DNA of 64,000 nucleotides from Pseudomonadota bacterium (GCA_018814305.1 JAHJAA010000045.1:74346-138345); one strand, 5' to 3'; shown: positions 3,630 to 64,000, counted from the first letter of the stretch. The notes: a model not told the origin generated them from the sequence alone. Program-made: numbers and translations.

Positions 3630-3857
3630 GTAACTATCCAGCTTCCTAACCGGGCGGGCCCGGCCTCTATTTTAAAATCAACAAAATCAACATGTTGCAT
3701 ATTTATTACTTAGAAGCTTAATGCTGAAAATGATCAAAAACCACCAGAATGTAACTGTTCAGATGTGCTTCAGGTGTGCTCAATGAGGACTTTCAGCTAT
3801 ACATCGGTATGCTGGAAGGCCGAATCGAGCGCAGATGGAGTGCAGCTGGATAGTTAC
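3630..3857. mobile_element. MITE-like non-autonomous element, copy A (228 bp)
   Basis: Perfect 14-bp terminal inverted repeats: GTAACTATCCAGCT at 3630-3643 and AGCTGGATAGTTAC at 3844-3857. Flanked by the 8-bp direct repeat GTTTTTAT (3622-3629 and 3858-3865). The first 95 nt are 89/95 identical to 60666-60760. No ORF of credible size inside. Confidence 0.75.
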
Positions 3858-5366: not shown

Positions 5367-5627
5367 ATGCCCAGTTGTCAATCAGGCCCTGAGATAGAGT
5401 ACCCCTGCAGATGGCAATATACAATTATCGGCACTCACCGCGAACAGCTACGAGATCTCATTGAAGAGATTGCCGATTCACGACAATACACCCTCTGTTT
5501 TTCAAAAGTCAGCAGTTCTGGAAAATATCATAGTTTCGACCTGGATATTGAAGTTAGGTGCCAAGAGGAACGCGATGCCCTTTACCAACAGTTAATCTGT
5601 CACAACTTGGTCAAGGTCATCTTATAG
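5367..5627 (+). CDS. DUF493 / YbeD-family small protein
   Basis: 86 aa. [26 protein letters not shown] and the VKVIL C-terminus parallel E. coli YbeD (FPTPFTYKVMG, SSKGNYHSVSITI, VRMVL). Confidence 0.7.
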
Positions 5628-5653
5628 ATCATCACCCCAGAAGGAATGAATAC

Positions 5654-6676
5654 ATGGCAAATTGGTTTGCAGCGTCAAATGGAAAATCCCTCGGCCCCTA
5701 TACAACCCAGGAAATGATCAATGCCCTCCAGTCAGGACGTTTCACCCGTGAAATGTTGGTCTGGCGTGAAGGATTCTCGAGTTGGCTGGCCATTGAACAG
5801 GTTGATGAACTCTCCGGCCAGGTAAGCTCAACCGAAATCCACCAACCTCCCACGCCACCTCCTACCGAGGGCAAAAAAGCCCATGAAATTGATTTTGAGA
5901 TCATCGGCAATGAAATGCAATTTGTTGAAATTGAACTTGATCCGGGGGAGAGTGCAGTGGCCGAAGCCGGAGCCATGGTTTACATGACCGATGGAGTCGA
6001 AATGAAAACCGTCTTCGGTGATGGCAGTGCAGCATCCCAATCCGGTGGCATTTTCAATAAACTCCTGGGAGCAGGCCAACGGTTGATAACCGGGGAGAGT
6101 CTTTTCTGCACGATCTTCACCTATAAGGGCTCATCCGGCAAAGGAAAAATCGCCTTTGGGTCTCCGTATCCCGGCAAGATTATCCCTCTGGATTTAACGA
6201 ATTTTCATGGCCGGTTAATTTGCCAAAAAGATGCCTTTCTCTGCGCAGCGAAGGGGGTTTCAATTGGAATCGCCTTCCAGAAACGGATAGGTGCGGCTCT
6301 TTTTGGTGGAGAGGGCTTCATCATGCAGAAATTGGAAGGAGATGGACTGGTTTTTATTCACGCCGGGGGAACCATCGTGGAAAAACAATTGGCACGAGGA
6401 GAAACACTAAGGGTTGATACAGGATGCCTAGCCGCTTTGACCGACACAATACGATACGACATTGAATACGTCGGCAATGTCACCTCTGGGCTCTTCGGTG
6501 GAGAAGGTTTTTTCTATGCATCCCTGACCGGCCCAGGCCATGTCTGGCTCCAGTCATTACCATTTTCCAGACTGGCCGGGCGTATTCATCGGGCGGCCCC
6601 CCAAAACAGGGGCGGAGCAAGCACGGTGGGGGAGGGCTCAGTACTGGGGGGATTGGGCAAACTTTTTCAAGAGTAG
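5654..6676 (+). CDS. GYF_2 (DUF4339) domain fused to an AIM24/TIGR00266 (DUF124) domain
   Basis: Start moved to the in-frame ATG at 5654. N-terminus: [27 protein letters not shown]...[18 protein letters not shown] (GYF_2). A Pro-rich linker follows. Then [38 protein letters not shown] and [24 protein letters not shown] (AIM24). Confidence 0.75.
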
Positions 6677-7242: not shown

Positions 7243-9744
7243 ATGAACGAAAATCAGATTGAATCTGCTCAAGTAGCCATCAAGGGGATGCATTGTGCCG
7301 CCTGTTCCGCCCGGATTGAAAAAGTTCTGTCAGCGACCCCCGGGGTTATCAAGGCCAGTGTCAACCTGGCCACGGAAACAATGTCCATCTCCTGGGAGCA
7401 GGACCACGTAACGCTCGTCGCTTTAGCTGAAAAAATTTCCGGTCTTGGCTTCGAATTGGTTATCCCCCAGACCGAGACGGAGGCCCGCTTTGAAATAGAA
7501 GGAATGAGTTGCGCCTCCTGTTCCTCTAGAATTGAAAAGGTAATCGGGGGGCTTCCAGGAGTCAAGTTGGTTACAGTGAGTCTCCCTGCCAATTCAGCAA
7601 TGATCCAATTTGACTCATCCCTGGTAAGCCAGCGAACGATCAGAGAAAAAATCAACACCCTTGGCTTTAAAGCCACACCAGCTTCGACCTCCTCGGGAAT
7701 TTCTGATGACGGCCGCATAAGGGCAGAAAAAAAGCTGGACACCATGAAGAGGGATCTATTCCCGGCCCTAATCCTTGGAGGACTTCTTCTCTTTGTTTCC
7801 ATGGGAGAGATGGCAGGAATACATCTTCCTGATCCGGTGTCTCCCGATCATAACCCCTTGGGTTTTGGTTTGCTCCAGTTGATCATTGTTTTACCCCTGA
7901 TGTGGCTGGGTCGACGTTTTTATCAGGTCGGAGTTCCAAGTCTCCTCCGGGGAGCGCCCAATATGGACTCCTTGATTGCCGTCGGTACCGGTGCCGCCTT
8001 TATTTATAGTGTCTGGAATTTAATAGAAATTGCCGCAGGCGTTGCAAAACTCCATCAGGCCAGAGACTTTTATTTCGAATCGGCAGGAGTTATTATCGCC
8101 CTGGTTTCGCTTGGTAAATATATGGAGGCGCGATCCAAGGTCAAAACATCCGACGCCATCAGACAACTCATGAAACTGACCCCGGATAAGGCAATCCTGA
8201 TCCGGGGTGATCAACAGGAAGAAGTTCTTGTTGAAGAAATCAATCCCGGAGACATCATCCTTGTCCGGCCTGGTGATCGAATTCCGGTTGACGGTCTTGT
8301 TGTCAAAGGAAATTCAAGTGTTGATGAATCAATGCTGACCGGAGAAAGCATGCCGGTCAAGAAAAAATCAGGCGATCAGGTAGTCGGCGCGACCCTTAAC
8401 ACGACAGGAATTCTCCATGTCCAGGCAGAACGAGTAGGACAGGATACCGTCCTTGCCAGAATCATCAAACTGGTCCGTGACGCCCAAGGCAGCAAAGCAC
8501 CAATAGCCAACCTGGCCGATCGGATCAGCCTGTACTTCGTTCCAATCGTGATGGGGCTTGCGCTTCTTGCCGGACTCTCCTGGTACTTCATCGGGGGCGC
8601 TGATTTTGCTTTTTCCTTGAAAATATTTGTCGCTGTGATGGTCATCGCTTGTCCTTGTGCCATGGGGCTTGCCACCCCGACTTCCATCATGGTTGGAACC
8701 GGGCGGGGCGCTCAACTCGGCATATTAATTAAAAGCGGCGAGGCCTTAGAAAAAGCCCAGTCCGTGGATACCGTGGTCTTCGACAAAACCGGAACCCTGA
8801 CCCATGGTCGGCCGATGATGACAGACTTTATCCTGCTCACCTCATCCATGGCAGAAAAGGAACTACTTTCTCTTATTGTCGGGGCTGAATCGGTTTCCGA
8901 ACATCCTCTGGCCCGGGCGGTGATGAAATCGGAAGAAGTTAAAGATATTCCCATTGCTCATCCTGAATCTTTCGAGGCTCTACCCGGTCGAGGAATCTCC
9001 GCTCGAGTGAAAGGTCACGACGTTCTGGTGGGGAACACAAGTCTTCTTCTGGAAAAATCAATTATCCTTGCCGACCAATTGGCCTTTGAACAAAAGATTT
9101 TATCTTTGTCTGAAGATGGCAAGACCGTAATATCCATTGCTGTTGACGGAACACTTGTTGCCCTGATGGGAATAGCCGACCCCTTGAAACCTGACGCAGC
9201 TGCAACCGTTGCTCGGTTAAAGGCCATGAACATTCTTTCGGTGATGCTCACCGGAGACCATGAAGCCACAGCCAAGGCTATTGCTCGTCAGGCTGGAATA
9301 ACTGAAGTCATCGCCCAAGTCTTGCCGGAACACAAGGCGCAAAAAATTATCGAGTTACAAGAGCAGGGGAGAACAGTAGCCATGGTTGGTGATGGCATCA
9401 ATGATGCCCCGGCCCTGGCCAGGGCGGATGTTGGTATCGCCATGGGCACCGGCATAGATGTGGCAATTGAATCTGGTGATATAGTTTTGATGAAAGGAGA
9501 ACTCACCTCCTTATTAACCGCGTTCCATGTAAGCCGAGCCACCATGAGAAATATCCGCCAGAATCTCTTTTGGGCCTTTATCTATAACATCATTGGTATC
9601 CCCATAGCCGCTGGTGTTCTTTTCCTGATGGGCGGTCCGACTTTAAACCCCATGATTGCAGGGGCGGCCATGGCGATGAGTTCCGTTTCGGTGGTAACTA
9701 ACGCCTTGCGTTTACGCTTTTTGCAACCCCCAATATTTAAATAA
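7243..9744 (+). CDS. copA: copper-translocating P1B-type ATPase
   Basis: Two N-terminal HMA domains ([24 protein letters not shown]), a CPC motif ([11 protein letters not shown]), DKTGTLT, and the GDGINDAP hinge. Confidence 0.95.
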
Positions 9745-9793: not shown

Positions 9794-9983
9794 ATCATTC
9801 CGTCCAGACAATGGTTCAAATAACCGTTTAAAAAACTCTTTGACAAATAAATGAGAAAAGGTAGAAAATATCTATCCTGTTCATTTCTGTTCTATGTTTC
9901 ATTTCAATCCAAGTCATAACCCGATTGTAGAAACCATATATTTATGGGCCTCCCCCCATGAATCTCCAAAGGATGGTAGGCGT

Positions 9984-10775
9984 ATGTTAAAAAAAATATA
10001 TATCTTCCTGCTCATTGTTTCTCTTTTTATTCCTCTGACCACTGCCTTTGGCGATGGGCTTGGGATCAAGAAAAAAAACCCCAAACCCCATGAATTCGGA
10101 GATCTCATTCTTAACAATTTTTCCACCAAGGCCAATCGTGCCCCGGTCCTATTCCGCCATTGGCTCCACCGGGCCAAATATACGTGTCGGCTGTGTCATG
10201 TTGATATCGGATTCAGCATGCGCTCGGGAGAAACCGGAATCACCGAGTCAGATAATGAAAACGGCCTCTATTGCGGATCCTGCCATAATGAAAAGGAGGC
10301 CTTTGGTCCAACGAGTACTGATACCTCCGGAAAGGATATAAAAAATTGTGATCTGTGCCACAGGGTCGGCAAAGAGATTCCCCTTAGAAACAACTTTTAT
10401 GAATTTCGCAAAACGATGCCCCGGGAAAGATTTGGTAATGGGATAGATTGGATCAAGGCGGAAGAGCAAGGCCTGATCAAATTAAAAGACTATCTGGAAA
10501 ACATCTCAATCAAAAGACCTAAGATTGATGATCCGGCGGCTTTGACCATTGAACCGCATGAAAAAAACATGCCTGAAATCATCTTTTCCCATGAGAAGCA
10601 CGCCAAATGGAGTGGATGCGAACTCTGCCATCCTGATATCTTCGGTATCAAAAAAGGGGCTGAACCCTACACCATGCAAGAAATATTTGACGGAAAATAT
10701 TGCGGCCTCTGCCATGGCCCGGTCGCCTTTCCAAATATGGATTGTCAACGGTGCCATACCAAACTGGCTCAATAG
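9984..10775 (+). CDS. periplasmic hexaheme cytochrome c, two c7-type triheme domains
   Basis: Start moved to ATG 9984 (signal peptide MLKKIYIFLLIVSLFIPLTTAFG). Six CXXCH motifs: CRLCH, CGSCH, CDLCH, CELCH, CGLCH, CQRCH. The F-x-H-x-x-H-x(4-6)-C-x-x-CH pattern occurs twice. Confidence 0.85.
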   Translation: MLKKIYIFLLIVSLFIPLTTAFGDGLGIKKKNPKPHEFGDLILNNFSTKANRAPVLFRHWLHRAKYTCRLCHVDIGFSMRSGETGITESDNENGLYCGSCHNEKEAFGPTSTDTSGKDIKNCDLCHRVGKEIPLRNNFYEFRKTMPRERFGNGIDWIKAEEQGLIKLKDYLENISIKRPKIDDPAALTIEPHEKNMPEIIFSHEKHAKWSGCELCHPDIFGIKKGAEPYTMQEIFDGKYCGLCHGPVAFPNMDCQRCHTKLAQ

Positions 10776-10784
10776 GTATCCAGA

Positions 10785-11561
10785 ATGATCTCTTTTCGGC
10801 TTTTAACCATAATAGCTCTTGTCATCTTGGGTTGCCACAGTCCTCTTCCGGCCCAAGCAGAGCAAGCTTTCTGGAAATTTCCAGAACTCCCTCCCCCCCA
10901 TCAATATGGAGATATCCTTATCGATCGCCTCTCATCCTCCAAAGGAATGAAACCGGTCTGGTTCTCCCATTGGAGTCACCGACTTAAGTACAGTTGTCGA
11001 GTCTGTCATCTTGAACTGGAATTCTCTTTTAAAAAAAATACAACATTAATGACCGAAGAAGAAAACCGGAATGGACAGTATTGCGGAACCTGTCATGATG
11101 GAGAAAAGGTCTTCGGCCATGATGAAAAAAATTGCGCCCGCTGCCATACCGGGGAAATCCAATCCGATCCCAAGCGATTCGCAGACTTAACCCATGATCT
11201 CCAAAAATCACCCTTTGGGAACAAAATCAATTGGGCAGGAGCCATGAGAAGTGGAAGAATCAACCCAATTTATTCCCTCTTCAATCCAGAAGAAACACCA
11301 ATGCCTTTCAAAAAGAACCTCGAACTTGAGGCGGAGTGGCCCTTTGTTCCACCGGCCCTGTTCCCTCATAAAATACACGTGCAGTGGCTCGACTGTGCCA
11401 ACTGCCATCCTGATCCTTTCAATATCAAGAAAAAAACGACCGAACATTTTCTGATGCAATATATTCTGGAAAATCAATTCTGCGGGGTCTGTCACCTCAA
11501 AGTTGCTTTTCCATTAAATGATTGTACCCGGTGCCATCCAGGTATCACCATGGAAAAATAA
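10785..11561 (+). CDS. hexaheme cytochrome c lipoprotein, two c7-type triheme domains (paralog)
   Basis: Lipobox VILGC. Six CXXCH motifs (CRVCH, CGTCH, CARCH, CANCH, CGVCH, CTRCH) with the same spacing as the upstream gene. The gap to that gene is 9 nt. Confidence 0.85.
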   Translation: MISFRLLTIIALVILGCHSPLPAQAEQAFWKFPELPPPHQYGDILIDRLSSSKGMKPVWFSHWSHRLKYSCRVCHLELEFSFKKNTTLMTEEENRNGQYCGTCHDGEKVFGHDEKNCARCHTGEIQSDPKRFADLTHDLQKSPFGNKINWAGAMRSGRINPIYSLFNPEETPMPFKKNLELEAEWPFVPPALFPHKIHVQWLDCANCHPDPFNIKKKTTEHFLMQYILENQFCGVCHLKVAFPLNDCTRCHPGITMEK

Positions 11562-53850: not shown

Positions 53851-56800
53851 ATGAAAAAAGCAATCATCATCATAGCGGGCCTTTCGCTGATTCTGCTAGG
53901 AGTTGTTTTTTTTGTTCCAAGCCTATTTCATTGGGATCGGATCCAATCCCAACTGGTCAAACGATTATCCACTGAAATCGGCTGGCAGGTAGAAGCCCAA
54001 CAGGTGGACTGGTACTGGTTGCCCCTTCCCCATTTTTCTCTCTTTGAAGTCACATTATCCCGAGAAAATGCCTCTATCACCCTCCCGGAAACCAGGCTCT
54101 ATCCACGGTTCAAATCTCTTCTCGACGCTCAACCTGATTTCGGCGAGATCCAAATGGTTCATCCGTCAGCGACCATCACGAACCTGACAGGATTACCCAA
54201 GAACGATGAAAAAATCCGCTTCCGAGGTAAAATTTCCATAATCAATGGCAAGCTTAATTTAGGAAAGAACATCTTAAAAAAGATAGGCATTCCAGGTTCG
54301 GATCTAGAGATAACCGGCATAGATGGCATGTTTGAGGTTGCACCTGGGTGGATAAATCTACTGTTATCAGCCAAATCCTCCCTGGCCGATGGAATTTTCA
54401 TGAAAGGATATTACGACCTTATCAACAATACCTATCAAGGGAAATACGAGCTTAATTCTTTTAAATTATACCAAGTCTTCCCATCTTTACTCGCTGGGGG
54501 CTTGGAACTTCCCAAGTCAGGCCTTTCCTTTTCAGGTCAGATCAAGGGCCAAGGGAATGATCAACTTGAAGCATCGATCAACGGAAACTTCCCCTGCTTC
54601 ACGACCCCATCAGTCCCCGAAAAGTTGTTTCTTGACTGCGGAGAGGCCCATCTCAGGGTTGAGAAAAACGCTGGTGAAATTACAGTGCACATTGACCAAC
54701 TCAACCTCAACAAACCAGGACTGATTCTGTCAGGTAAAGTGTCAAGATTACACGATTCATCGCCCAGTGATAGTATAGCGGAACCGGTCTGGCTTTTGGA
54801 TTTATATGGCAAAGATATTAACGCAGGTTCTCTGCGCACGTCACTTCTCACTCTATGGCCCAATGATGAAATCGTAAAAATAGTGAGTGATATTGTCCTC
54901 GATGGTCTGATTGGCAAGGCTTCTTATTACTTTAGAGGCCCGGTTGAAGATTTTATGTATCTCGAAAAAATGAAAATAACTGCAGATGTGGTGAGTGCGT
55001 CGATTCATCCGCCAATGACCCCGCTGTTTCTTAATAATGCATCTGGACCCATCGAGATTACAAACGGTTATCTGTCGGGTCGAAATCTTACTGCCCGATA
55101 CCAGGGAAGCAGTGGGAAAAACTGTTCGCTTTATCTCGACCTTCTCTCCCGAGACAATGCCTTTCGCCTCGATCTTGATTTAGAGGTAGATTTAACGAAC
55201 CTACCTCCTGTGTTGGATAATCTGGTCAACCATGACCTGTTCAAGAGTGAACTTCACCGCTTTACAAATGTTACCGGCCATGCATCTGGACATCTCACCC
55301 TGGGTGATACCTTAGATAACATTCTTGTCGGAGTTGATGTCAATCGCATGAAAGGTCATTTCAGCTATAACCGTCTGACCAATGACTGTTCGGTACAAAA
55401 GGGAGACCTCTCAATTCGACCGGAAAAAGTTAGCTGGAAAAACATTCAGGGCAGCTCAGGGCCGCACCTTATTCATGAAAGCAGCGGTGATGTTTCCTGG
55501 CAACAACAGGTTATGATTAATCTTACTTCCCTTTCCGCGTCCGTTGAGTCAGGCCCCCTTATGCAGGAACTCGCCACCTCAAAAGCCCTGCCGGATGAAA
55601 TCCACAAGGCCATCAGTCGCGCCGAAGGTCCTGTAGAAGTGAGCAATGTCAACCTTCAGGGACCCGCCGCTCAACCGCAGCTATGGCAATACTCCTTTGA
55701 TCTGGATAGCAAGGGGAGTCGCTGGGAAAGCCCCATGCTCCCTCAACCCATACTGGTTGAACGCGCCAGAGGGAAAATCACCCACGAGAATATCCTCCTC
55801 AAAGAAAGCAAACTCTGGTTTTTTGAGCACCCTCTCTCTCTTGAAGGGGATGTCTTGCATCATCTCTTCACCGATTTAAATGGGTGGCTTCGGATCAGTG
55901 GCACCCTGAAGGGCAAATTTGCTCAATGGCTTAAGGATAAAAAATCCATACCAGAGAAATATTTCCCCAGAATCCCCTGCACCTTGGATAAAATGAAAAT
56001 TGGTTGGAAAGGAAAGACATCGAGCCTGGAAGGCACTGTGCTTTCAGGACTTGGTGAGGCGGATAGTGTAAAGGCTCGCATAAATCTGGAGTCAAATCAA
56101 CAAAAACTGATGGTCCATGAGTTGGTATTTATTGCCAAAGAAGAAATCGGCAGACTGAGCCTGGAACACCCACAAGAGGACAATAGTATTCTCCATATGA
56201 ACTGGCAGGGATTCCTCTCAGGATCAACTTTGAACGAGCTCTTTCCCGTCTCCTTAGATCCATCCGGCCACCTTGAAGGTGATTTTTTTATCCAGGCGGA
56301 ACAACTCAATGGATCAAATTTTTTCCAGGGATGGCTGAAAGCTAGAAATATGAATATTCCATCGCTTGAGGAGAGACCTGAAATACGAATAGACTCCCTC
56401 ATCCTTTCTTCTGGAGAACAGGATGGAGAGTTGAATATTAAGAATTTAATACTGAAAGTGGCTGACGAACAGATGATGATAACCGGCTCTGTTCAGGCAG
56501 AAAAGGAGATTATCAAACTTGATCTTAACGTGACCTCGACCAAACTATCCCGCCAAAACGTTGATGAACTAATAAACGTTTTAAACACAATTCAACCAAA
56601 GCCCTCCCCCCCACCGACAGGTGAAAATTCATATTCTCCCCCAAATACCCCGTGGGCACTAATCGGCCGAATCGAATTCAATATCGATCAATATCTCTCG
56701 ACCCCCTCAAATATTCCTGACAAGGAGAACACCCCCCCTGAGCATACCGAATTTGGAACACGCTTTTCCGTCACACCTTTACGAGGATACATATCCCTTC

Positions 56801-57555
56801 TCAATGACCGGACGTACTCGGTTGATATCCGCTCATCAAATCTCTGCGGACTTGATCTTTCCGGTCAATGGCATTCCGTATCAAGCCTTGGGGACACCTC
56901 TTTCAACATTTACACTGACAGCAAAGCTCCTCCCCGATTCGAAAATGTCCTGACATGCCTGGGTATTGATCAACATATACTTGAAGGCGTGGTCCATCTC
57001 GATGCCAAAATTAAAGGCCAAGATAATCTCTGGAAGGAAGGAAACATAGCCCTCTATTCCGATCAAGGTCGGATCCGGCGCCTAAATGCCCTATCAAAAG
57101 TATTCCGGTTTATCAACCTCACTGATTTTTTTGCCAAGGGTGGTCTCCCAGATTTAGAAAAGGAGGGGTTTGGTTTTTCACGTTTGGATTTTCATGGACA
57201 CATAGCTGATAATCATTTAATCGTTGACGAAGGAATTATCTTCGGGGATGGTCTCAATCTTTTTCTTCAAGGCGACATAGGAATTGCAGACCGTACAGCC
57301 GATATGGTTCTGATGGTCGCCCCATTGAAAACCCTAGATGTGTTGGTGACAAGTGTGCCTCTGATAGGAAAAATCGTCGGAGGAAAAGATAAGACAGTTA
57401 TTTCTATTCCAGTAAGGATCACCGGCGACATTAGAGATCCGGTTATCGAAATCCTGCCTGCAGAGGAAATCGGCAAAGGAATACTTACCCTGATCGGTAA
57501 GACATTGCTGTTCCCCTTTATCATCGTCAATCCGGAAACGAATCAGTTCCAATAG
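53851..57555 (+). CDS. 1234-aa AsmA/YhdP-like envelope protein (N-terminal anchor, AsmA_2-like C-terminus)
   Basis: N-terminal TM helix (IIIIAGLSLILLGVVFFV). The body is long and looks beta-rich. The C-terminal block LNLFLQGDIGIADRTADMVLMVAPLKTLD...ISIPVRITGDIRDPVIEILP resembles the conserved end of YhdP/AsmA-like proteins. Confidence 0.55.
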   Translation: MKKAIIIIAGLSLILLGVVFFVPSLFHWDRIQSQLVKRLSTEIGWQVEAQQVDWYWLPLPHFSLFEVTLSRENASITLPETRLYPRFKSLLDAQPDFGEIQMVHPSATITNLTGLPKNDEKIRFRGKISIINGKLNLGKNILKKIGIPGSDLEITGIDGMFEVAPGWINLLLSAKSSLADGIFMKGYYDLINNTYQGKYELNSFKLYQVFPSLLAGGLELPKSGLSFSGQIKGQGNDQLEASINGNFPCFTTPSVPEKLFLDCGEAHLRVEKNAGEITVHIDQLNLNKPGLILSGKVSRLHDSSPSDSIAEPVWLLDLYGKDINAGSLRTSLLTLWPNDEIVKIVSDIVLDGLIGKASYYFRGPVEDFMYLEKMKITADVVSASIHPPMTPLFLNNASGPIEITNGYLSGRNLTARYQGSSGKNCSLYLDLLSRDNAFRLDLDLEVDLTNLPPVLDNLVNHDLFKSELHRFTNVTGHASGHLTLGDTLDNILVGVDVNRMKGHFSYNRLTNDCSVQKGDLSIRPEKVSWKNIQGSSGPHLIHESSGDVSWQQQVMINLTSLSASVESGPLMQELATSKALPDEIHKAISRAEGPVEVSNVNLQGPAAQPQLWQYSFDLDSKGSRWESPMLPQPILVERARGKITHENILLKESKLWFFEHPLSLEGDVLHHLFTDLNGWLRISGTLKGKFAQWLKDKKSIPEKYFPRIPCTLDKMKIGWKGKTSSLEGTVLSGLGEADSVKARINLESNQQKLMVHELVFIAKEEIGRLSLEHPQEDNSILHMNWQGFLSGSTLNELFPVSLDPSGHLEGDFFIQAEQLNGSNFFQGWLKARNMNIPSLEERPEIRIDSLILSSGEQDGELNIKNLILKVADEQMMITGSVQAEKEIIKLDLNVTSTKLSRQNVDELINVLNTIQPKPSPPPTGENSYSPPNTPWALIGRIEFNIDQYLSTPSNIPDKENTPPEHTEFGTRFSVTPLRGYISLLNDRTYSVDIRSSNLCGLDLSGQWHSVSSLGDTSFNIYTDSKAPPRFENVLTCLGIDQHILEGVVHLDAKIKGQDNLWKEGNIALYSDQGRIRRLNALSKVFRFINLTDFFAKGGLPDLEKEGFGFSRLDFHGHIADNHLIVDEGIIFGDGLNLFLQGDIGIADRTADMVLMVAPLKTLDVLVTSVPLIGKIVGGKDKTVISIPVRITGDIRDPVIEILPAEEIGKGILTLIGKTLLFPFIIVNPETNQFQ

Positions 57556-57698: not shown

Positions 57699-58601
57699 AT
57701 GTTGGTTAAAGATATTCTGAACTCAAAAAGAACTTCATTCAGTTTTGAATTCTTCCCCCCGAAAACAGAGGAAAGCTGCAATAAACTATTTCATAATATA
57801 GCGCATCTTATGCCGCTCAAGCCATCCTATGTCAGTGTGACTTATGGCGCCGGAGGTTCGACCCGTGACCGGACCCATGAACTGGTGGTTCGCATCCAAA
57901 AAGAAACCGACCTTACAGTTGTCTCCCACTTGACCTGTGTAGGATCATCCCAAGGAGAAATAGAATCTGTTCTGGGAAAATACAAGGATTCTGGCGTTGA
58001 AAATATTCTGGCCTTACGTGGCGATATCCCCAAAGGAGAAAAAGAATGGCAGAATCCACCGGATGGGTTTAACAATGCGGCGGAATTGGTAAAATTTATC
58101 AAGAATAAATTCCCTGGAATGTGTATCGGAGTAGCCGGTTTCCCCGAAGGTCACCCTGAGACTCCTAATCGTTTGAAGGAAATTGAGTATCTTAAAGCAA
58201 AGGTCGATGCCGGAGCCGATTACATTGTATCCCAACTTTTTTTCGACAACCGTGATTTCTACGATTTTTGCGAACGATGTGAACTGGTTGGAATTAAGGT
58301 GCCTATCCTTGCTGGAATCATGCCTATTACATCCAGACACGGCATGATCCGAATGGCCGAACTCGCAGGAGGAGCTCGATTACCGGCGAGACTGCTCAGG
58401 GCTGTCGCTCGAGCGGAAGACGATACCTACGTGGAAAAAGTTGGGGTCCATTGGGCCACTGAACAGGTCCGTGATCTTCTGGACAACAACATAAGAGGAA
58501 TACATTTTTACACTCTTAATACCTCAGAAGCGACTTTGAAAATCTATGAATCACTCGGGGTAACCAGTTCAGAACAATTGATATCCGGCTCTCGCATCTA
58601 G
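57699..58601 (+). CDS. metF: 5,10-methylenetetrahydrofolate reductase
   Basis: 300 aa. FEFFPPKT, VSVTYGAGGSTR, and the TCVG block. Confidence 0.9.
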   Translation: MLVKDILNSKRTSFSFEFFPPKTEESCNKLFHNIAHLMPLKPSYVSVTYGAGGSTRDRTHELVVRIQKETDLTVVSHLTCVGSSQGEIESVLGKYKDSGVENILALRGDIPKGEKEWQNPPDGFNNAAELVKFIKNKFPGMCIGVAGFPEGHPETPNRLKEIEYLKAKVDAGADYIVSQLFFDNRDFYDFCERCELVGIKVPILAGIMPITSRHGMIRMAELAGGARLPARLLRAVARAEDDTYVEKVGVHWATEQVRDLLDNNIRGIHFYTLNTSEATLKIYESLGVTSSEQLISGSRI

Positions 58602-58616
58602 CTTAAGGTTGACGGC

Positions 58617-59030
58617 ATGACCAAATTTGAGAATCAACTTGAACTGGACCGTCGGAAATATCCCCGGATCTTTTTTTCAGTGGATGATGAGGTCGCTGCT
58701 TCCATTACCACCCCCAATACCAACAATCTCCCACCCTTCCATGCCAAGGTCATGGATCTCAGCTTAGGAGGCCTCTTTTTCACGATAAAACGTGGTGAGC
58801 TCTTACCAATCAACGAAGGCGACTTCCTCCTCTTAAAAGATATCATCGCATTTTTTCAATTTCGAATTACTTGCGAAATTGAAATGAAAGTTAAACGAGT
58901 CCAGGATCATCAGTTTATTGAGTATATCGGTTTCGGTTGCGAGTTTATTTCCCCACCGCCTGAAACGGAAGAACAGATCAGAAATCTATTAAACTTGATC
59001 CACCGAAAAGATCAAAAAATCAAGGCCTGA
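58617..59030 (+). CDS. single-domain PilZ (c-di-GMP-binding) protein
   Basis: RxxxR motif (RRKYPR) and D-x-S-x-x-G motif (DLSLGG) at canonical spacing. 137 aa. Confidence 0.8.
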   Translation: MTKFENQLELDRRKYPRIFFSVDDEVAASITTPNTNNLPPFHAKVMDLSLGGLFFTIKRGELLPINEGDFLLLKDIIAFFQFRITCEIEMKVKRVQDHQFIEYIGFGCEFISPPPETEEQIRNLLNLIHRKDQKIKA

Positions 59031-59051
59031 CCAGGCCCCCAAAAGGATGTC

Positions 59052-60320
59052 ATGACCCTCACCTGTCCCGCCTGTACCTCTTCTTACAGGCTCCCTGACG
59101 GGGTAATTCCGAAACGAAAATCTGCGATACGATGCAAAAAATGTGGCAGAAGAATCGTAATTAACCCTGGATGCTTATCGACCCATAAAAACGAAACCAA
59201 AAAGCCATACCCGAGCGTTCCAGGTTCACCAAGCGATCATTTGGCCAAAAAGTCTGTCCTTCAAGGGAAATCTGCACGTGGGAGGGAAACCCCTGGCGCA
59301 TCCGAGGAAACAACACCAGATCCATCCTCGCTCAATAGTACTCATCTCCCCTCCGCTAAGGTTCCCAACACCCTCAACAAGAAGCAACCAGAACATAAAC
59401 ATGACGTGAATCCAGAATTGTTCACGACTTTTCCTCTTTTAAACAAACTTTCTTCAGAATATTACTGTTTCTCATCCATATTCTCTTCCAGAGACTCTCT
59501 CCTTTTGAGGAGCCGCGAAAATGGCATCAAAACTAAATTGCTCTTGGCACTCAACCATTTATTCACTGAATCCCTCCTTTTACCTGGAGAACAAATTTAT
59601 AAAATCACCATGGGAATAGCTTATTATCCTTTCGAGATTCCATATTTAAACGGCATCCTTACCTGTTATTCCAACTACTATGCAATAGTATGTACGAATC
59701 AGAGAATCCTCCTGGTTAATGTCAATAGAAACTTGACCAAACCGACTCGCTACTTTTTCCAAATATCCTACCATGAGCTTACCGCGATAAGTCGCGGCAT
59801 ATTTCTCAGCAGCCTGATTTTTAAAAATCGTTTTGGAACGATCAATAACTTAACAACCATAAGCAGAGTAACTGCGAAAGATATTATTATCTTTATCAAG
59901 CAAGAAACTCAAAAAACCACAAAGCTTTATGAGACCTCAGATCATCACAATACTTATCACCTATGCCCTTCCTGTTTTTCCCCTCTAAATGACTTTTTAA
60001 AATCATGCCCCACGTGTGGGGTCCTTTTCAAATCATCACATATCGCCCTGCTATTTTCTTCTCTTTTACCGGGATCCGGATCATTATATCTAGGCCTTTT
60101 CCCCTTGGGAGGAACAGAACTATCGGCTTATTTCTTTGTTTTATTTATCGTAATAAGTAAATATCCCGATGCGACACCTTTTAGCTTGGGCTTAACTGGA
60201 GTTCTACTCGTAATTTTTCATCTCCTTTCGGGTAATCTTGCCTTTTTCTCAACCCGCAAGGGGTATTTGCTCAAAACACCGAGAAAGAAGATCCTATCAA
60301 AGGAAAAAGATATTCACTAG
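59052..60320 (+). CDS. membrane protein with an MJ0042-type zinc ribbon, PH-like middle domain, second zinc ribbon and C-terminal TM helices
   Basis: CPACTSSYRLPDGVIPKRKSAIRCKKCGRRIVI at the N-terminus, then a Ser/Pro/Lys-rich linker. The middle region (YAIVCTNQRILLV...ISYHELTAI) resembles bacterial PH domains. CPSC-x10-CPTC follows, then two or three TM helices including LLPGSGSLYLG. Confidence 0.6.
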   Translation: MTLTCPACTSSYRLPDGVIPKRKSAIRCKKCGRRIVINPGCLSTHKNETKKPYPSVPGSPSDHLAKKSVLQGKSARGRETPGASEETTPDPSSLNSTHLPSAKVPNTLNKKQPEHKHDVNPELFTTFPLLNKLSSEYYCFSSIFSSRDSLLLRSRENGIKTKLLLALNHLFTESLLLPGEQIYKITMGIAYYPFEIPYLNGILTCYSNYYAIVCTNQRILLVNVNRNLTKPTRYFFQISYHELTAISRGIFLSSLIFKNRFGTINNLTTISRVTAKDIIIFIKQETQKTTKLYETSDHHNTYHLCPSCFSPLNDFLKSCPTCGVLFKSSHIALLFSSLLPGSGSLYLGLFPLGGTELSAYFFVLFIVISKYPDATPFSLGLTGVLLVIFHLLSGNLAFFSTRKGYLLKTPRKKILSKEKDIH

Positions 60321-60665
60321 TACAGACATAATTTGACCCATCTCATAGAGAGAAATACTCGACCATGAGGACACATTCTTACGTATGATTTTTATGTATT
60401 TTTTTTCACTACAGACTATAATCTTACAAGCTACAGTTTCACTTGGAGAGAAACACTGATTGCAGGGGGAAGACCGAAGAAGGGAGATTCACAACAATTA
60501 CTACAATAGAGGTGAGTCCTTCCTAATAACATTAAGATATCGCTCAAGAAAATCCGCCCACGCGCATTTTCCCAAACACTCTAACATATCAAAACACCGA
60601 GTGAGAAGAATTTAGGCAAGATTCGTTTGCCGCGAAGAAAATCAGCGAACTAAGTAAACGTATTC

Positions 60666-60815
60666 GTAACTATCCAGCTTCCTAACCGGGCGGACCCGGC
60701 CTCTATTTTAAAAGTAACAAAATCAAAATGTTGCATATTTGTTACTTAGAAGCATAATGCCGGTAACGAGCAAACCCGCCGGGATGGAACACAGATGGAG
60801 TGCAGCTGGATAATT
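60666..60815. mobile_element. MITE-like non-autonomous element, copy B (150 bp, internally shorter)
   Basis: Left TIR GTAACTATCCAGCT (60666-60679); right end AGCTGGATAATT (60804-60815). Flanked by the direct repeat CGTATTC (60659-60665 and 60816-60822). 89/95 identity to copy A at the left, and 21/21 (CAGATGGAGTGCAGCTGGATA) at the right. Confidence 0.7.
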
Positions 60816-60856
60816 CGTATTCTTTAGTTTCATCATGCCTTGGGGAGGGAGAAGAC

Positions 60857-61225
60857 ATGACTTTAGAAAAAAGCATAACTGAGGAACGAAGACAGTACAA
60901 ACGCTACCCGGTTAGAGATGGCGCCTATACAGCCAACGCCACCAAACCCGGCAGAATAATTGACATTGGCCTGGGAGGTTTAGCCTGTCAATATATTGAC
61001 CGTAAACTTTGGCCAAATCAAACTCATTCCATGGATTTAATCTATGGTGAAGATAATGCCGTCCGAATCATCAATATTCCATACCGGGTAGTTTCGGAAC
61101 ATCCGGTTAAGGATGAACACCGCTTTGATTCAACTATTATCAAGAGACAAAGTATTCAATTTGGCGAACTTACCCGACAACAAATCAGTGAGCTTGAAGA
61201 ATTCATCAAAAAGAGCGCACTATAA
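60857..61225 (+). CDS. single-domain PilZ (c-di-GMP-binding) protein
   Basis: Start moved to ATG 60857 (GGGGAGGGAG RBS); the tracked ORF start lies inside the MITE. RxxxR (RRQYKR) and D-x-S/G-x-x-G (DIGLGG). Confidence 0.8.
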   Translation: MTLEKSITEERRQYKRYPVRDGAYTANATKPGRIIDIGLGGLACQYIDRKLWPNQTHSMDLIYGEDNAVRIINIPYRVVSEHPVKDEHRFDSTIIKRQSIQFGELTRQQISELEEFIKKSAL

Positions 61226-61853
61226 ACACGTTAAATGTTCCATGTCTCTTTTCGTCTGTTCTCCATCAATCTAGCCAAATGGCTTGAGTAATTGGGTACT
61301 AACACGGTCAAACCGCAACATAAATATCGGTCATCTCACTGAAAACACTTCGAAAATAGCTCTTCCATTCTTCACGAGAAACATATCAACACATCAAGAA
61401 ACTGGACTGGATATATGGGATAGGACAATATCATTTTTTTAAAGTGCTCCTTCCTTAATTTAGCGAATATAGCATTAGGCTACTTTCCTCATTACAGCAC
61501 ATGGATTTTCCAATTAGACTTCACCTATAAAGAGGCATTTCAAAGCCTCAAACTCGTCATGAACCAAAAACCTTAAACAAAAAAAGACTCTCTATACTCA
61601 ATCAAGCTTTTAGGGGAAGATAGTATCGAAGCGAACCATCACTACTTCGTTATATAGATACGAGTTATAGTTTATCCCAAGAACAAGCCCAAATAAGTAT
61701 CAATGAACATGTTTTGCTGCTGGGAAGCAATATGTGATTTTAAGATACCGCCTTTGTAAGTTTCAACTTGACAAGGACGTCTAATTTCTGTACCCTGATA
61801 ATAGTATTAATCAAATTATAGCCTCATCAACTTGCGTGGGGGGGGAATTAATC

Positions 61854-63110
61854 ATGCAAAACAAGGGCGGAAAGATGGTAAAAAGGGGAAAGTTTTTGTT
61901 GTCGTGTGTAACGGCAACCATTGGACTTGGCGCGGCAGGACTCGTTAGTGCTGCTGTAATCGGACCCTGTGTTGATTGTCATACTATGCACAATAGTACG
62001 AATTCAAATGTGGCCACATTTGCCGGTACCGGTGTTGGTGATTATGGCGGATGGAACGGAACATCCTTGTCGGGTAGTGACAACACTTCACAGGGGAAAT
62101 TGTTGAAATCTGATTGTATCGGTTGTCATTCTTCAACCGACAGTTCCACTACTGTTGTCACCTTGGGTAGCGGTCTTAAAATACCCGTCGTTTTCAACAT
62201 TGGTGGGTATCCTGCAGCAGCCTTGGCGGGTGGTAACTTTTTCCAGACCTCACAGGCTGGCGGTCAGGGTTATGGTCACAACGTTTGGGGCATTGCAGGC
62301 AATGACCCGGATATAGCCGATAATCCTGCGGCAATTTCCTGGGCAATGGCAGGTTGTGCCAATAGCTGTCATACCGATCTTGCCCTCGACCCTGCTGCAA
62401 CCGCTTCACCGTCTGACCCAAGATTTTCCAACAAAAATGGCTGCGAGGGTTGCCATCTGTATGCTACTAATATCGGTGGCATTGGTGGACATCACAATAG
62501 TGCTGACACATCCTATCGTTTTCTCGGTGGTCATCAAGTACCAACGACTGGGGTCGTTGATGCCGGTGGTGCTGGAACACCCTATGAAGATTCCGACTGG
62601 GAAGCCACTAAGGGTGCTGGAGATCATAACTTCTACCGATGGCAACAACCTGATACCGATGACACTCTGAATTCAATGAGTATTGGTCGGTTCTGCGCCG
62701 GTTGTCATAACCGTTTCCATGCAAATGGTCGCATTGATGGCAATGCCTTTGGTCAGGACAATGGTGGCGATTCAAATGCCGACGATATTGCTAGTAACCA
62801 ATCCAGTCCTTGGTTACGTCATCCAACCAATGTCCAGTTACCCAATACCGGTGAATATGCTGCCGTCAGGGGAACTGCATACAATCCCAATATCCCTGTA
62901 GCCCAGAATCCAACTGACTTTGGTGGTGCCGCAGCAGATAACGTAACCATCGGTGATCAGGTCATGTGCTTAAGTTGTCATCGGGCCCATGCCTCAGATC
63001 AACCTGATGCTTTACGATTTAATTACACTAATGTAAGAGCACATGAGGTAACTCTTGGAAACGCAACCAATGGCTGCTTCTACTGTCATACTACTAAGGA
63101 TGATTTATAA
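61854..63110 (+). CDS. OmcS-family multiheme c-type cytochrome (6 CXXCH plus 1 CX3CH), secreted
   Basis: ATG 61854 follows a G-rich RBS; signal peptide ends ...GLVSAA. Heme motifs: CVDCH, CIGCH, CANSCH, CEGCH, CAGCH, CLSCH, CFYCH. Non-heme blocks CHTMHNS, SYRFLGG, WLRHP, CLSCHRAHAS..RFN and C-terminal CH-x-x-KD parallel G. sulfurreducens OmcS as I recall it. Confidence 0.75.
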   Translation: MQNKGGKMVKRGKFLLSCVTATIGLGAAGLVSAAVIGPCVDCHTMHNSTNSNVATFAGTGVGDYGGWNGTSLSGSDNTSQGKLLKSDCIGCHSSTDSSTTVVTLGSGLKIPVVFNIGGYPAAALAGGNFFQTSQAGGQGYGHNVWGIAGNDPDIADNPAAISWAMAGCANSCHTDLALDPAATASPSDPRFSNKNGCEGCHLYATNIGGIGGHHNSADTSYRFLGGHQVPTTGVVDAGGAGTPYEDSDWEATKGAGDHNFYRWQQPDTDDTLNSMSIGRFCAGCHNRFHANGRIDGNAFGQDNGGDSNADDIASNQSSPWLRHPTNVQLPNTGEYAAVRGTAYNPNIPVAQNPTDFGGAAADNVTIGDQVMCLSCHRAHASDQPDALRFNYTNVRAHEVTLGNATNGCFYCHTTKDDL

Positions 63111-63133
63111 TTAAGTAATTTTCATTCGAAGTT

Positions 63134-63167
63134 TAAAAAGGCCATCCATCTGGATGGCCTTTTTTTT
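63134..63167 (+). terminator. rho-independent terminator after the OmcS-like gene
   Basis: GGCCATCC-ATCT-GGATGGCC followed by T9, with an A-run upstream. Confidence 0.9.
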
Positions 63168-63762
63168 TGGGGTATTTCAAATCCGATAAATGTAAAGTCT
63201 ACCGTTCATTGTTATAAATGTTTCTATAGCAAACTCAGCAGAACAGACTTCGCCTCTTCGAAAAGAACACGGTTATTGATTTTATCCTGCGAAAGTAGTC
63301 ATTGGCATAAAAGACTGATGTTCTGCCTCAATCAATCCCGAGAAATACCTAAGTTCCGTTCAACCTTACGATACATTGAAATAGCGATCCTTCGAATGAC
63401 GAACAAACGAGTTACGAACATTCGAACAGGGGAACCTCCCCAGCTCGTTATTCGATTATTCGTCATTTGAGTTTCGCTTTATGAGCTGATTTTCGTTAAG
63501 AGGCACTTTGTTAAATGTCCAAAGCCATCAACACCAAATCCCGGAACTTTTTATAATGGCTTTTAAGAGATGTTGAGCAGACAGTCGTATCGGACGTACG
63601 ATTGTAATGTTCGGTATAAGCGTTCCAATAAATAGAATTCAATCATTTATGTTGTTGGCCAATGAGCGAAGGGCTTTCTAGTGTATTTTCCGGGTCATTG
63701 CTATGTGCATATCTGCTTCACTAAACGGGTATAACCTGCCTGGATGTGGTGAAGCACTTCAC

Positions 63763-63803
63763 AAAAAAAACGCCACATTTGAATAAATTTTCAAATGTGG
63801 CGC
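63763..63803 (-). terminator. rho-independent terminator of the minus-strand gene ending at 63851
   Basis: GCCACATTTGA ... TCAAATGTGGC stem. On the minus strand it is followed by T8 (A8 on the plus strand at 63763-63770). Confidence 0.8.
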
Positions 63804-63850
63804 TCTTAATTTAGAAAAGAGAATCGGTTAGGCCCCAAAACAAACAACAT

Positions 63851-64000
63851 TTATTGCACTGATTCGATTAACTCCTTTACCGTCTTTCCGTTAGGGGCCA
63901 TAGCCCCTGGATTAATATTGACCAATTCCTGCCAGGACCGAAGGCCACCCTCTTTATCACCCACGTCATAAATCATGACGATTCCCTTATTAAAACGGGC
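63851..64000 (-). CDS. C-terminal fragment of an unidentified protein (gene runs off the window end)
   Basis: Open minus-strand frame from 64000 to the TAA at 63853-63851 (...FNKGIVMIYDVGDKEGGLRSWQELVNINPGAMAPNGKTVKELIESVQ*), followed by a terminator. No family recognised. Confidence 0.45.
   Translation of the reverse strand, partial: ARFNKGIVMIYDVGDKEGGLRSWQELVNINPGAMAPNGKTVKELIESVQ

Follow-up and report, generated by a model that had tools for sequence, protein, structure and literature searches.

A conserved gene block with an OmcS-like cytochrome and a zinc-ribbon membrane protein carries two stand-alone PilZ genes as a lineage-specific addition

In a 64,000-nucleotide stretch of DNA from a Pseudomonadota bacterium (GCA_018814305.1, JAHJAA010000045.1:74346-138345; hereafter the window), five plus-strand genes across 57.7-63.1 kb, identified by open reading frame (ORF) calls and Pfam matches, encode a methylenetetrahydrofolate reductase (metF), a stand-alone PilZ protein (PilZ-1), a zinc-ribbon membrane protein (ZnR; gene, znr), a second stand-alone PilZ protein (PilZ-2) and a multihaem cytochrome resembling OmcS. 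Comparison with about 17 related loci (L001-L008 and L010-L019, with L017-L019 representing one lineage) showed that the locus is a conserved gene block, to which the two PilZ genes are a modest, lineage-specific addition. We tentatively favour the reading (probability roughly 45%) that both PilZ proteins are accessory cytoplasmic adaptors responsive to cyclic diguanosine monophosphate (c-di-GMP), likely docking on the cytoplasmic part of ZnR within a Desulfobulbales-type yhdP-(metF)-znr-omcS-like block. The link between the PilZ proteins and the cytochrome is weak; what is new, in a modest way, is the fixed place of the ZnR family beside an OmcS-type heptahaem cytochrome, the recurrent znr-PilZ-2 pair and a conserved leader in front of the cytochrome gene.

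Across the related Desulfobulbales-type loci, the block has the order (lpxB-GFO/IDH)-yhdP-(metF)-znr-omcS-like. The yhdP gene, which opens the yhdP-(metF)-znr-cytochrome part (53851-57555, plus strand; 1234 amino acids; a YhdP/AsmA-family envelope protein with Pfam scores of 65.6 bits for YhdP and 31.5 bits for AsmA), has orthologues of 37-40% identity at the equivalent position in all 14 of the 14 loci that are long enough. Orthologues of metF (57699-58601, plus strand; 300 amino acids; Pfam MTHFR, 323 bits) are 73-79% identical and lie upstream of znr in L001-L004 and L011-L018; metF is missing from L005-L008, where ZnR is kept, and on this ground ZnR was rejected as a partner of MetF. The cytochrome gene follows znr in L001, L004, L005, L007, L008 and L010-L016 (the ZnR-family gene of L014 and L016 having been read only from an alignment of the called gene), and in L003 the N terminus of the cytochrome is present at the contig end. 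No cytochrome follows znr in L002, where a radical-SAM gene takes its place, or in L017, and Dissulfurirhabdus thermomarina has a cytochrome homologue with no ZnR, metF or yhdP nearby. A functional unit of PilZ, ZnR, PilZ and cytochrome, as envisaged in a first-pass annotation of this DNA, was not supported by these comparisons: none of the roughly 17 loci carries all four genes, PilZ-1 occurs in none of them, PilZ-2 occurs only in L012 and L017-L019 (in the L017 lineage without a cytochrome), and 12 loci with a cytochrome beside a ZnR-family gene carry no PilZ at all. This is largely the outcome that the annotation itself had named as refuting the unit. That annotation had also placed these genes directly upstream of the cytochrome, which holds for the order and only loosely for the distance; the intergenic gaps are 15 nt (metF/PilZ-1), 21 nt (PilZ-1/ZnR), 537 nt (ZnR/PilZ-2) and 628 nt (PilZ-2/cytochrome), the last being non-coding.

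PilZ-1 (58617-59030, plus strand; 137 amino acids) begins 15 nt past the metF stop (58601), as first annotated, and matches the Pfam PilZ family (PF07238) above its cut-off (42.8 against 22.5 bits, E = 7.3e-11, residues 11-125). Both canonical c-di-GMP-binding motifs were confirmed, RxxxR as RRKYPR and (D/N)xSxxG as DLSLGG, and the protein has no transmembrane or hydrophobic segment. In a database of 5.8 billion protein clusters, the only match to PilZ-1 was PilZ-1 itself; elsewhere the metF-znr junction is tight (7-26 nt in L011-L013 and L015), with no PilZ-1 between the two genes. Judged by these comparisons, PilZ-1 is a lineage-specific (genome-specific) insertion between metF and znr. Its position, wedged by gaps of 15 and 21 nt into an otherwise tight junction, implies co-expression with znr, and the same tight packing makes a common transcript of metF, PilZ-1 and znr probable. 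A recent common origin of the two PilZ genes by duplication was considered and rejected, with BLASTP similarity confined to the motif region (E = 7e-4); PilZ-1 also scored only 15.5 bits, in the motif region alone, against a hidden Markov model (HMM) of the PilZ-2 family, and is not a member of it.

PilZ-2 (60857-61225, plus strand; 122 amino acids) scores 25.6 bits against the same Pfam model and cut-off and likewise has no transmembrane or hydrophobic segment. Its first motif is intact (RRQYKR), and its second reads DIGLGG, with Gly replacing the canonical Ser. These motifs and the Pfam match stood as first described, whereas the start codon was revised from GTG 60800 to ATG 60857, upstream of which lies a GGGAGGG Shine-Dalgarno sequence; the resulting 122-residue form is that of NCBI entry MBU0674671.1, 'PilZ domain-containing protein'. 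(NCBI gives the PilZ and zinc-ribbon genes generic, domain-level names of this kind and calls the cytochrome 'hypothetical'.) The family to which PilZ-2 belongs, stand-alone PilZ proteins of about 125 residues, is large, with 849 representatives at E <= 1e-3 and 66 at E <= 1e-10, and an HMM of 150 phmmer-recovered members matched PilZ-2 at 153 bits. A simple motif scan of the 150 highest-ranking matches read the variable position as Ser in 95 and as Gly in 17 and left 33 unmatched; some of the residue assignments (for example, that of the homologue P0126) are wrong.

Orthologues of PilZ-2 were found in only two other lineages among the related loci, each time directly after znr. One, in L012 (GCA_018823285.1), has 124 residues, 51% identity and the motifs RRQHQR and DIGLGG, with znr on one side and the cytochrome on the other; the second, P0126 (44% identity, DIGLGG), occurs in L017-L019 in the order metF-znr-PilZ-2, followed by an SPFH/Band-7 gene with C-terminal zinc ribbons and no cytochrome. 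A ZnR tree pairs the window with L012 as sisters and puts L017 on a separate branch, with ZnR identities among the three of 36-42%. L010, by comparison, has the cytochrome closest to that of the window (51% identity), yet no PilZ-2. Because PilZ-2 follows znr with or without a cytochrome, it tracks ZnR, not the cytochrome, and on this gene-order evidence it is best described as an accessory gene that accompanies znr. As a separate observation, the SPFH/Band-7 protein encoded directly after PilZ-2 in this lineage (L017, 2198-3343; also L019, 929-1528) carries several C-terminal DZR ribbons and is thus another zinc-ribbon, membrane-associated protein beside a PilZ-2-type gene.

ZnR itself (59052-60320, plus strand; 422 amino acids) consists, from N to C terminus, of an MJ0042-type zinc ribbon, a linker, a putative PH-like beta domain, a second ribbon and two or three membrane helices. 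The N-terminal ribbon, with two CxxC pairs (CPAC...CKKC), exceeds the thresholds of PF13717 (36.4 against 30.3 bits) and TIGR02098 (28.1 against 20.9 bits) and was matched in 12 of the 14 sequences of the family; P, S and K abound in the linker (residues 39-125). The second ribbon, CPSC-x10-CPTC, has cysteines (C305, C308, C319 and C322) that are invariant in the 14 homologues; for DZR (PF12773; residues 299-325), the window protein scores 18.9 against 27.3 bits, and 10 of the 14 members match (best E = 4.9e-6). Two strong C-terminal transmembrane segments (350-368 and 381-399) are followed by a basic tail, and the protein is predicted to lie N-in and C-in, with about 330 residues in the cytoplasm and about 10 outside. 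The first ribbon, linker, second-ribbon cysteines and membrane helices of the first-pass annotation were therefore upheld, and its PH-like domain was found only below threshold: residues ~180-290 reach 18.4 against 23 bits for bPH_3 (PF14470), with E < 0.01 in 3 of the 14 members. This core is strongly conserved and beta-rich (the 14-sequence alignment, A3, shows further conserved motifs besides the invariant cysteines), an AlphaFold2 (AF2) model made with four homologues as input (predicted local distance difference test (pLDDT) 44.6) has six strands followed by helices at pLDDT 45-69, and a PDB profile search with the 14-sequence alignment matched zinc ribbons only and no PH-domain structure.

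The same profile search showed the N-terminal ribbon to resemble the zinc-ribbon domain of GltJ (PDB 7zok, E = 3.5e-6). MJ0042-type ribbons are protein-interaction modules, and that of GltJ is a cytoplasmic docking site for other proteins. GltJ (AgmX) of Myxococcus xanthus and ZnR share the N-terminal ribbon, a long linker of low complexity and anchoring in the membrane; ZnR, however, lacks the GYF and TonB-C domains of GltJ and has the PH-like domain, the second ribbon and C-terminal helices instead, and only its first ~60 residues match the GltJ model NCBIfam NF033761 (22.5 bits against a cut-off of 450). Elsewhere in the window, a separate protein (5558-6676) combines GYF_2 and AIM24 domains, GYF being the domain that follows the zinc ribbon in GltJ.

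ZnR homologues are rare: a word-indexed search returned three, a genome scan added six loci, and further copies were found as neighbours of cytochrome and PilZ-2 homologues, while a scan of metagenome contigs with the ZnR alignment recovered a single trivial zinc-ribbon fragment (L009). The family, made up of zinc-ribbon/PH-like membrane proteins, is narrow and uncharacterised, and it is conserved beside an OmcS-type cytochrome in the Desulfobulbales. The called homologues of L014 (4768-5793; 341 amino acids) and L016 (4768-5814; 348 amino acids) have no N-terminal ribbon; about 150 nt after metF are unassigned in these loci, where either the start codons were mis-called or the ribbon was truly lost in a sub-clade.

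In the reading that we favour, a Desulfobulbales-type block has gained, in this genome, two unrelated single-domain cytoplasmic PilZ proteins, which would most likely dock on the large cytoplasmic portion of ZnR, made up of the zinc ribbons and PH-like domain and held at the membrane by the C-terminal helices. PilZ-1 would bind c-di-GMP canonically, binding by PilZ-2 may be weaker or altered by the Ser-to-Gly change that its orthologues keep, and any effect on the OmcS-like cytochrome would be indirect. Consistent with this, both PilZ proteins exceed the Pfam cut-off and carry RRxxxR; metF, PilZ-1 and znr are tightly packed; PilZ-2 lies directly after znr in lineages that do not form one tight ZnR clade; a terminator-like hairpin separates znr from PilZ-2; and the cytochrome gene has its own leader and -10-like box. 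Known stand-alone PilZ adaptors (MapZ/PA4608, DgrA and the PilZ proteins of Xanthomonas and Pseudomonas) are likewise cytoplasmic single domains of ~120-140 residues with RRxxxR, PilZ-1 also shares their DxSxxG, and by analogy action through binding of a partner would be expected. The proteins described here differ in that the candidate partner is an uncharacterised zinc-ribbon/PH-like membrane protein and in that PilZ-2 has DxGxxG.

Several observations weigh against docking on ZnR. About 14 of the 17 ZnR loci have no PilZ neighbour, so ZnR works without PilZ; the block keeps the unrelated yhdP and metF adjacent as well, which makes adjacency weak evidence of interaction; and most of the 849 representatives of the PilZ-2 family probably do not lie beside a ZnR gene. 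The low pLDDT of the ZnR model, which leaves the PH-like domain putative, and the missing canonical Ser of PilZ-2 count on the same side. The two genes might instead be chance neighbours, two of many stand-alone PilZ genes that came to rest in permissive intergenic sites of a stable gene block and whose targets would be unrelated systems (motility, pili or polysaccharide machinery, for example). The presence of two such genes in 2.6 kb need not by itself exceed chance in a lineage that is typically PilZ-rich, and such an origin would fit the absence of PilZ-1 from the cluster database and from every relative, the patchy occurrence of PilZ-2 (missing even beside the closest cytochrome, in L010), the great size of its family, the repeat element in front of it, also present at 3630-3855, as a sign of local rearrangement, and the tendency of the block to keep unrelated genes together anyway. 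However, PilZ-2 recurs immediately behind znr, whatever gene follows, in three lineages with ZnR proteins that share only 36-42% identity, and PilZ-1 sits wedged in a junction that is tight elsewhere; we therefore consider a chance arrangement somewhat unlikely.

A second alternative concerns PilZ-2 only, which could be a degenerate PilZ domain that binds no ligand and acts as an adaptor independently of c-di-GMP, in the manner of P. aeruginosa PilZ (PA2960), leaving PilZ-1 as the only sensor. The Gly in place of Ser, common to the window protein, the L012 orthologue and P0126, and a Pfam score barely above the cut-off are in keeping with this idea. We judge it unlikely, as RRxxxR is intact in PilZ-2 and conserved in its orthologues, the family tolerates either Ser or Gly (95 and 17 of the 150 best matches, with the 33 unmatched and partly mis-assigned members noted above) and non-binders of the PA2960 type are not known to have the RxxxR motif.

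The c-di-GMP itself would have to come from enzymes encoded elsewhere. As the first-pass annotation had stated, the window holds no GGDEF, EAL or HD-GYP gene by a six-frame motif scan and a Pfam search of 51 larger ORFs (all those judged genuine, overlapping alternatives being skipped), and from their RRxxxR motifs both PilZ proteins are plausible output modules of cyclases outside it.

The resemblance of the cytochrome (61854-63110, plus strand; 418 amino acids, with a signal peptide) to OmcS was confirmed at the level of profiles only. A single-sequence phmmer search against the PDB returned noise, whereas a family profile of 116 homologues (A2) reached OmcS (6ef8) at E = 2.2e-23 over OmcS residues 8-348, and an AF2 model (pLDDT 80.6; predicted template-modelling (TM) score, pTM, 0.82) had OmcS (6ef8_A) as its sole Foldseek match in the PDB (probability 0.99, TM score 0.42). 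The protein has seven haem motifs, six CXXCH and one CX3CH (CANSCH), the latter in the place of OmcS haem 3; one of the CXXCH motifs, CEGCH (residues 197-201), is additional to those of OmcS. In the 116 homologues, the N-terminal CxxCHTMH is nearly invariant and its second His fully so; this residue (H46) aligns with OmcS His16, the ligand of haem 5 in the neighbouring subunit, and the haem-5 motif, CLSCH, is also invariant in the family. The cytochrome thus shares with G. sulfurreducens OmcS homology over ~340 residues, the N-terminal motif including the His16 equivalent and CLSCH, and differs from it in having seven haem motifs rather than six, ~17% identity and no osc companion genes evident in the window. 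On this homology, it is a distant relative of OmcS and belongs to a large, uncharacterised family of candidate nanowire cytochromes, with more than 650 matches in the Desulfobulbales, the Nitrospirota and other Thermodesulfobacteriota. OmcS-like cytochromes had already been noted in the class Desulfobulbia (PMC10553843).

Downstream of the cytochrome gene, window positions 63111-64000 comprise 890 nt with no ORF longer than 64 amino acids and with a strong 13-bp hairpin terminator at 63771-63802. In the relatives, the genes on this side encode radical-SAM and FKBP proteins, a trypsin-like protease, ABC transporters or a sigma-54 two-component pair. The radical-SAM/FKBP genes were rejected as companions of the cytochrome, being present in L002 without it and absent from L011, L013, L015 and L016.

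Upstream, a short leader abuts the start codon (TTGCGTGGGGGG..ATG, 61831-61856, plus strand) and is common to the window and seven relatives (L001, ~6498; L003, ~9274; L004, ~11466; L005, ~2882; L007, ~5911; L008, ~11455; L012, ~7845). Its general form is TTTGCGTGGGGGG(A)AA(A)CATG, conserved at the nucleotide level though the cytochrome proteins are only ~39-50% identical, which suggests a conserved promoter, an unusually G-rich ribosome-binding region or a translational operator. About 45 nt upstream, several loci have a -10-like box of the type TGTTATAAT, with an AT-rich equivalent in the window. The leader, this box and the 628-nt gap together indicate that the cytochrome gene is probably under its own promoter, with a short 5' untranslated region (UTR). 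A promoter scan of the sequence yielded 13 sites, no more than the 14.2 expected from shuffled sequence.

The omcST operon of Geobacter is controlled by a GEMM-I riboswitch (PMC6456294), and this contrast, drawn in the first-pass annotation, proved apt: the window contains no GEMM or other riboswitch at the Rfam gathering threshold, and none at E <= 5 in the 1.6 kb preceding the cytochrome gene (60250-61900), which include the two long spacers; there the E-value-mode search gave only one spurious snoRNA (E = 4.2). If the -10-like box is a promoter, the 5' UTR would in any case be too short for a riboswitch. GEMM-I/Ib control of omcST remains a parallel insofar as it also places a cyclic-dinucleotide input near an OmcS-type gene. 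In L005, where 600 nt lie between ZnR and cytochrome, a search of that spacer for a concealed PilZ gene turned up only a 78-residue, repeat-containing ORF.

The first-pass annotation had suggested that the PilZ proteins might act on export or polymerisation of the cytochrome, and the corresponding alternative is that, with or without ZnR, they are c-di-GMP receptors acting post-transcriptionally on its export, maturation or polymerisation. There are reasons to take this idea seriously: the homology of the cytochrome to OmcS is genuine and its His16 equivalent invariant, it follows ZnR in 13 related loci with evidence of ZnR (plus L003, from the cytochrome N terminus only), PilZ-2 lies between the two in two genomes, and the lack of a GEMM riboswitch in the window makes another mode of control conceivable. 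There is also a precedent in G. sulfurreducens strain CL-1, in which deletion of a PilZ-domain gene led to massive overexpression of OmcS (Leang et al. 2013, as described in PMC6771412). CL-1 resembles the present case in concerning a PilZ-domain protein of an electroactive Desulfobacterota-type organism, the loss of which alters OmcS abundance; it differs in that the effect is pleiotropic (OmcS, PilA and exopolysaccharide) and in that PMC6771412 does not place the gene beside omcS.

Gene distribution and topology nevertheless make such a post-transcriptional action quite improbable, although an indirect effect on the cytochrome is conceivable. PilZ-1 is confined to this genome, 12 cytochrome loci have no PilZ, PilZ-2 follows znr with no cytochrome in L017, ZnR occurs with no cytochrome in L002 and the cytochrome with no ZnR in Dissulfurirhabdus, and a gap of 628 nt, a -10-like box of its own and a conserved leader set the cytochrome gene apart. 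Moreover, ZnR and both PilZ proteins face the cytoplasm, whereas OmcS-type polymerisation is presumably extracytoplasmic, so that a direct action on polymerisation is unlikely; the ~10 residues of ZnR predicted outside the cytoplasm argue against such a role for ZnR as well. Still more doubtful, at odds of just under one in ten, is a c-di-GMP-gated inner-membrane module of ZnR and PilZ-2 (with PilZ-1 here) that governs how an OmcS-type heptahaem nanowire is produced or secreted; this, if true, would mean protein-level cyclic-dinucleotide control of a cytochrome filament in the Desulfobulbales in place of the Geobacter riboswitch, and ZnR would be the first factor on the cytoplasmic side to be identified as devoted to such a cytochrome.

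Should the PilZ proteins dock on ZnR, as we tentatively prefer, they would provide a first functional handle on ZnR and define a new class of PilZ partner, for a family found beside the OmcS-type cytochrome in the Desulfobulbales, relatives of cable bacteria among them. The cytochrome family, a by-product of this analysis, may be of greater consequence than the PilZ genes: its heptahaem OmcS homologues, over 650 in number, keep the filament-linking His and, in the Desulfobulbales, lie in a fixed block, and they offer a good target in the search for cytochrome nanowires outside Geobacter.

The spacer between ZnR and PilZ-2 contains a non-coding repeat element of ~150 nt (60666-60815, plus strand), just upstream of PilZ-2, with a second copy in the same orientation at 3630-3855, flanked by genes for a Ser/Thr kinase and a MORN-repeat protein. 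The copies are ~90% identical over 109 nt plus 32 nt, and a 24-mer of the element occurs exactly twice in the window, against 0 expected. The element holds a GC hairpin with a T-run (in the spacer copy, the terminator-like hairpin at 60686-60699) and the inverted repeat GTAACAAA..TTTGTTAC, and the RNA fold has z = -2.4. The element had no match in Rfam; it could be a miniature inverted-repeat transposable element or an element of the repetitive extragenic palindromic type (MITE/REP-like), or a small RNA.

Two further features of the window lie outside the five genes. A sodium-dependent transporter gene (NF037979; 52210-53763) stands between the GFO/IDH-family gene and yhdP, which directly adjoin each other in L011 and L013, making the transporter a third lineage-specific insertion in the block. 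At some distance, downstream of a copper/heavy-metal P-type ATPase gene (7243-9744), two adjoining genes encode cytochrome c7-type multihaem proteins (9894-10775, 293 amino acids; 10785-11561, 258 amino acids).

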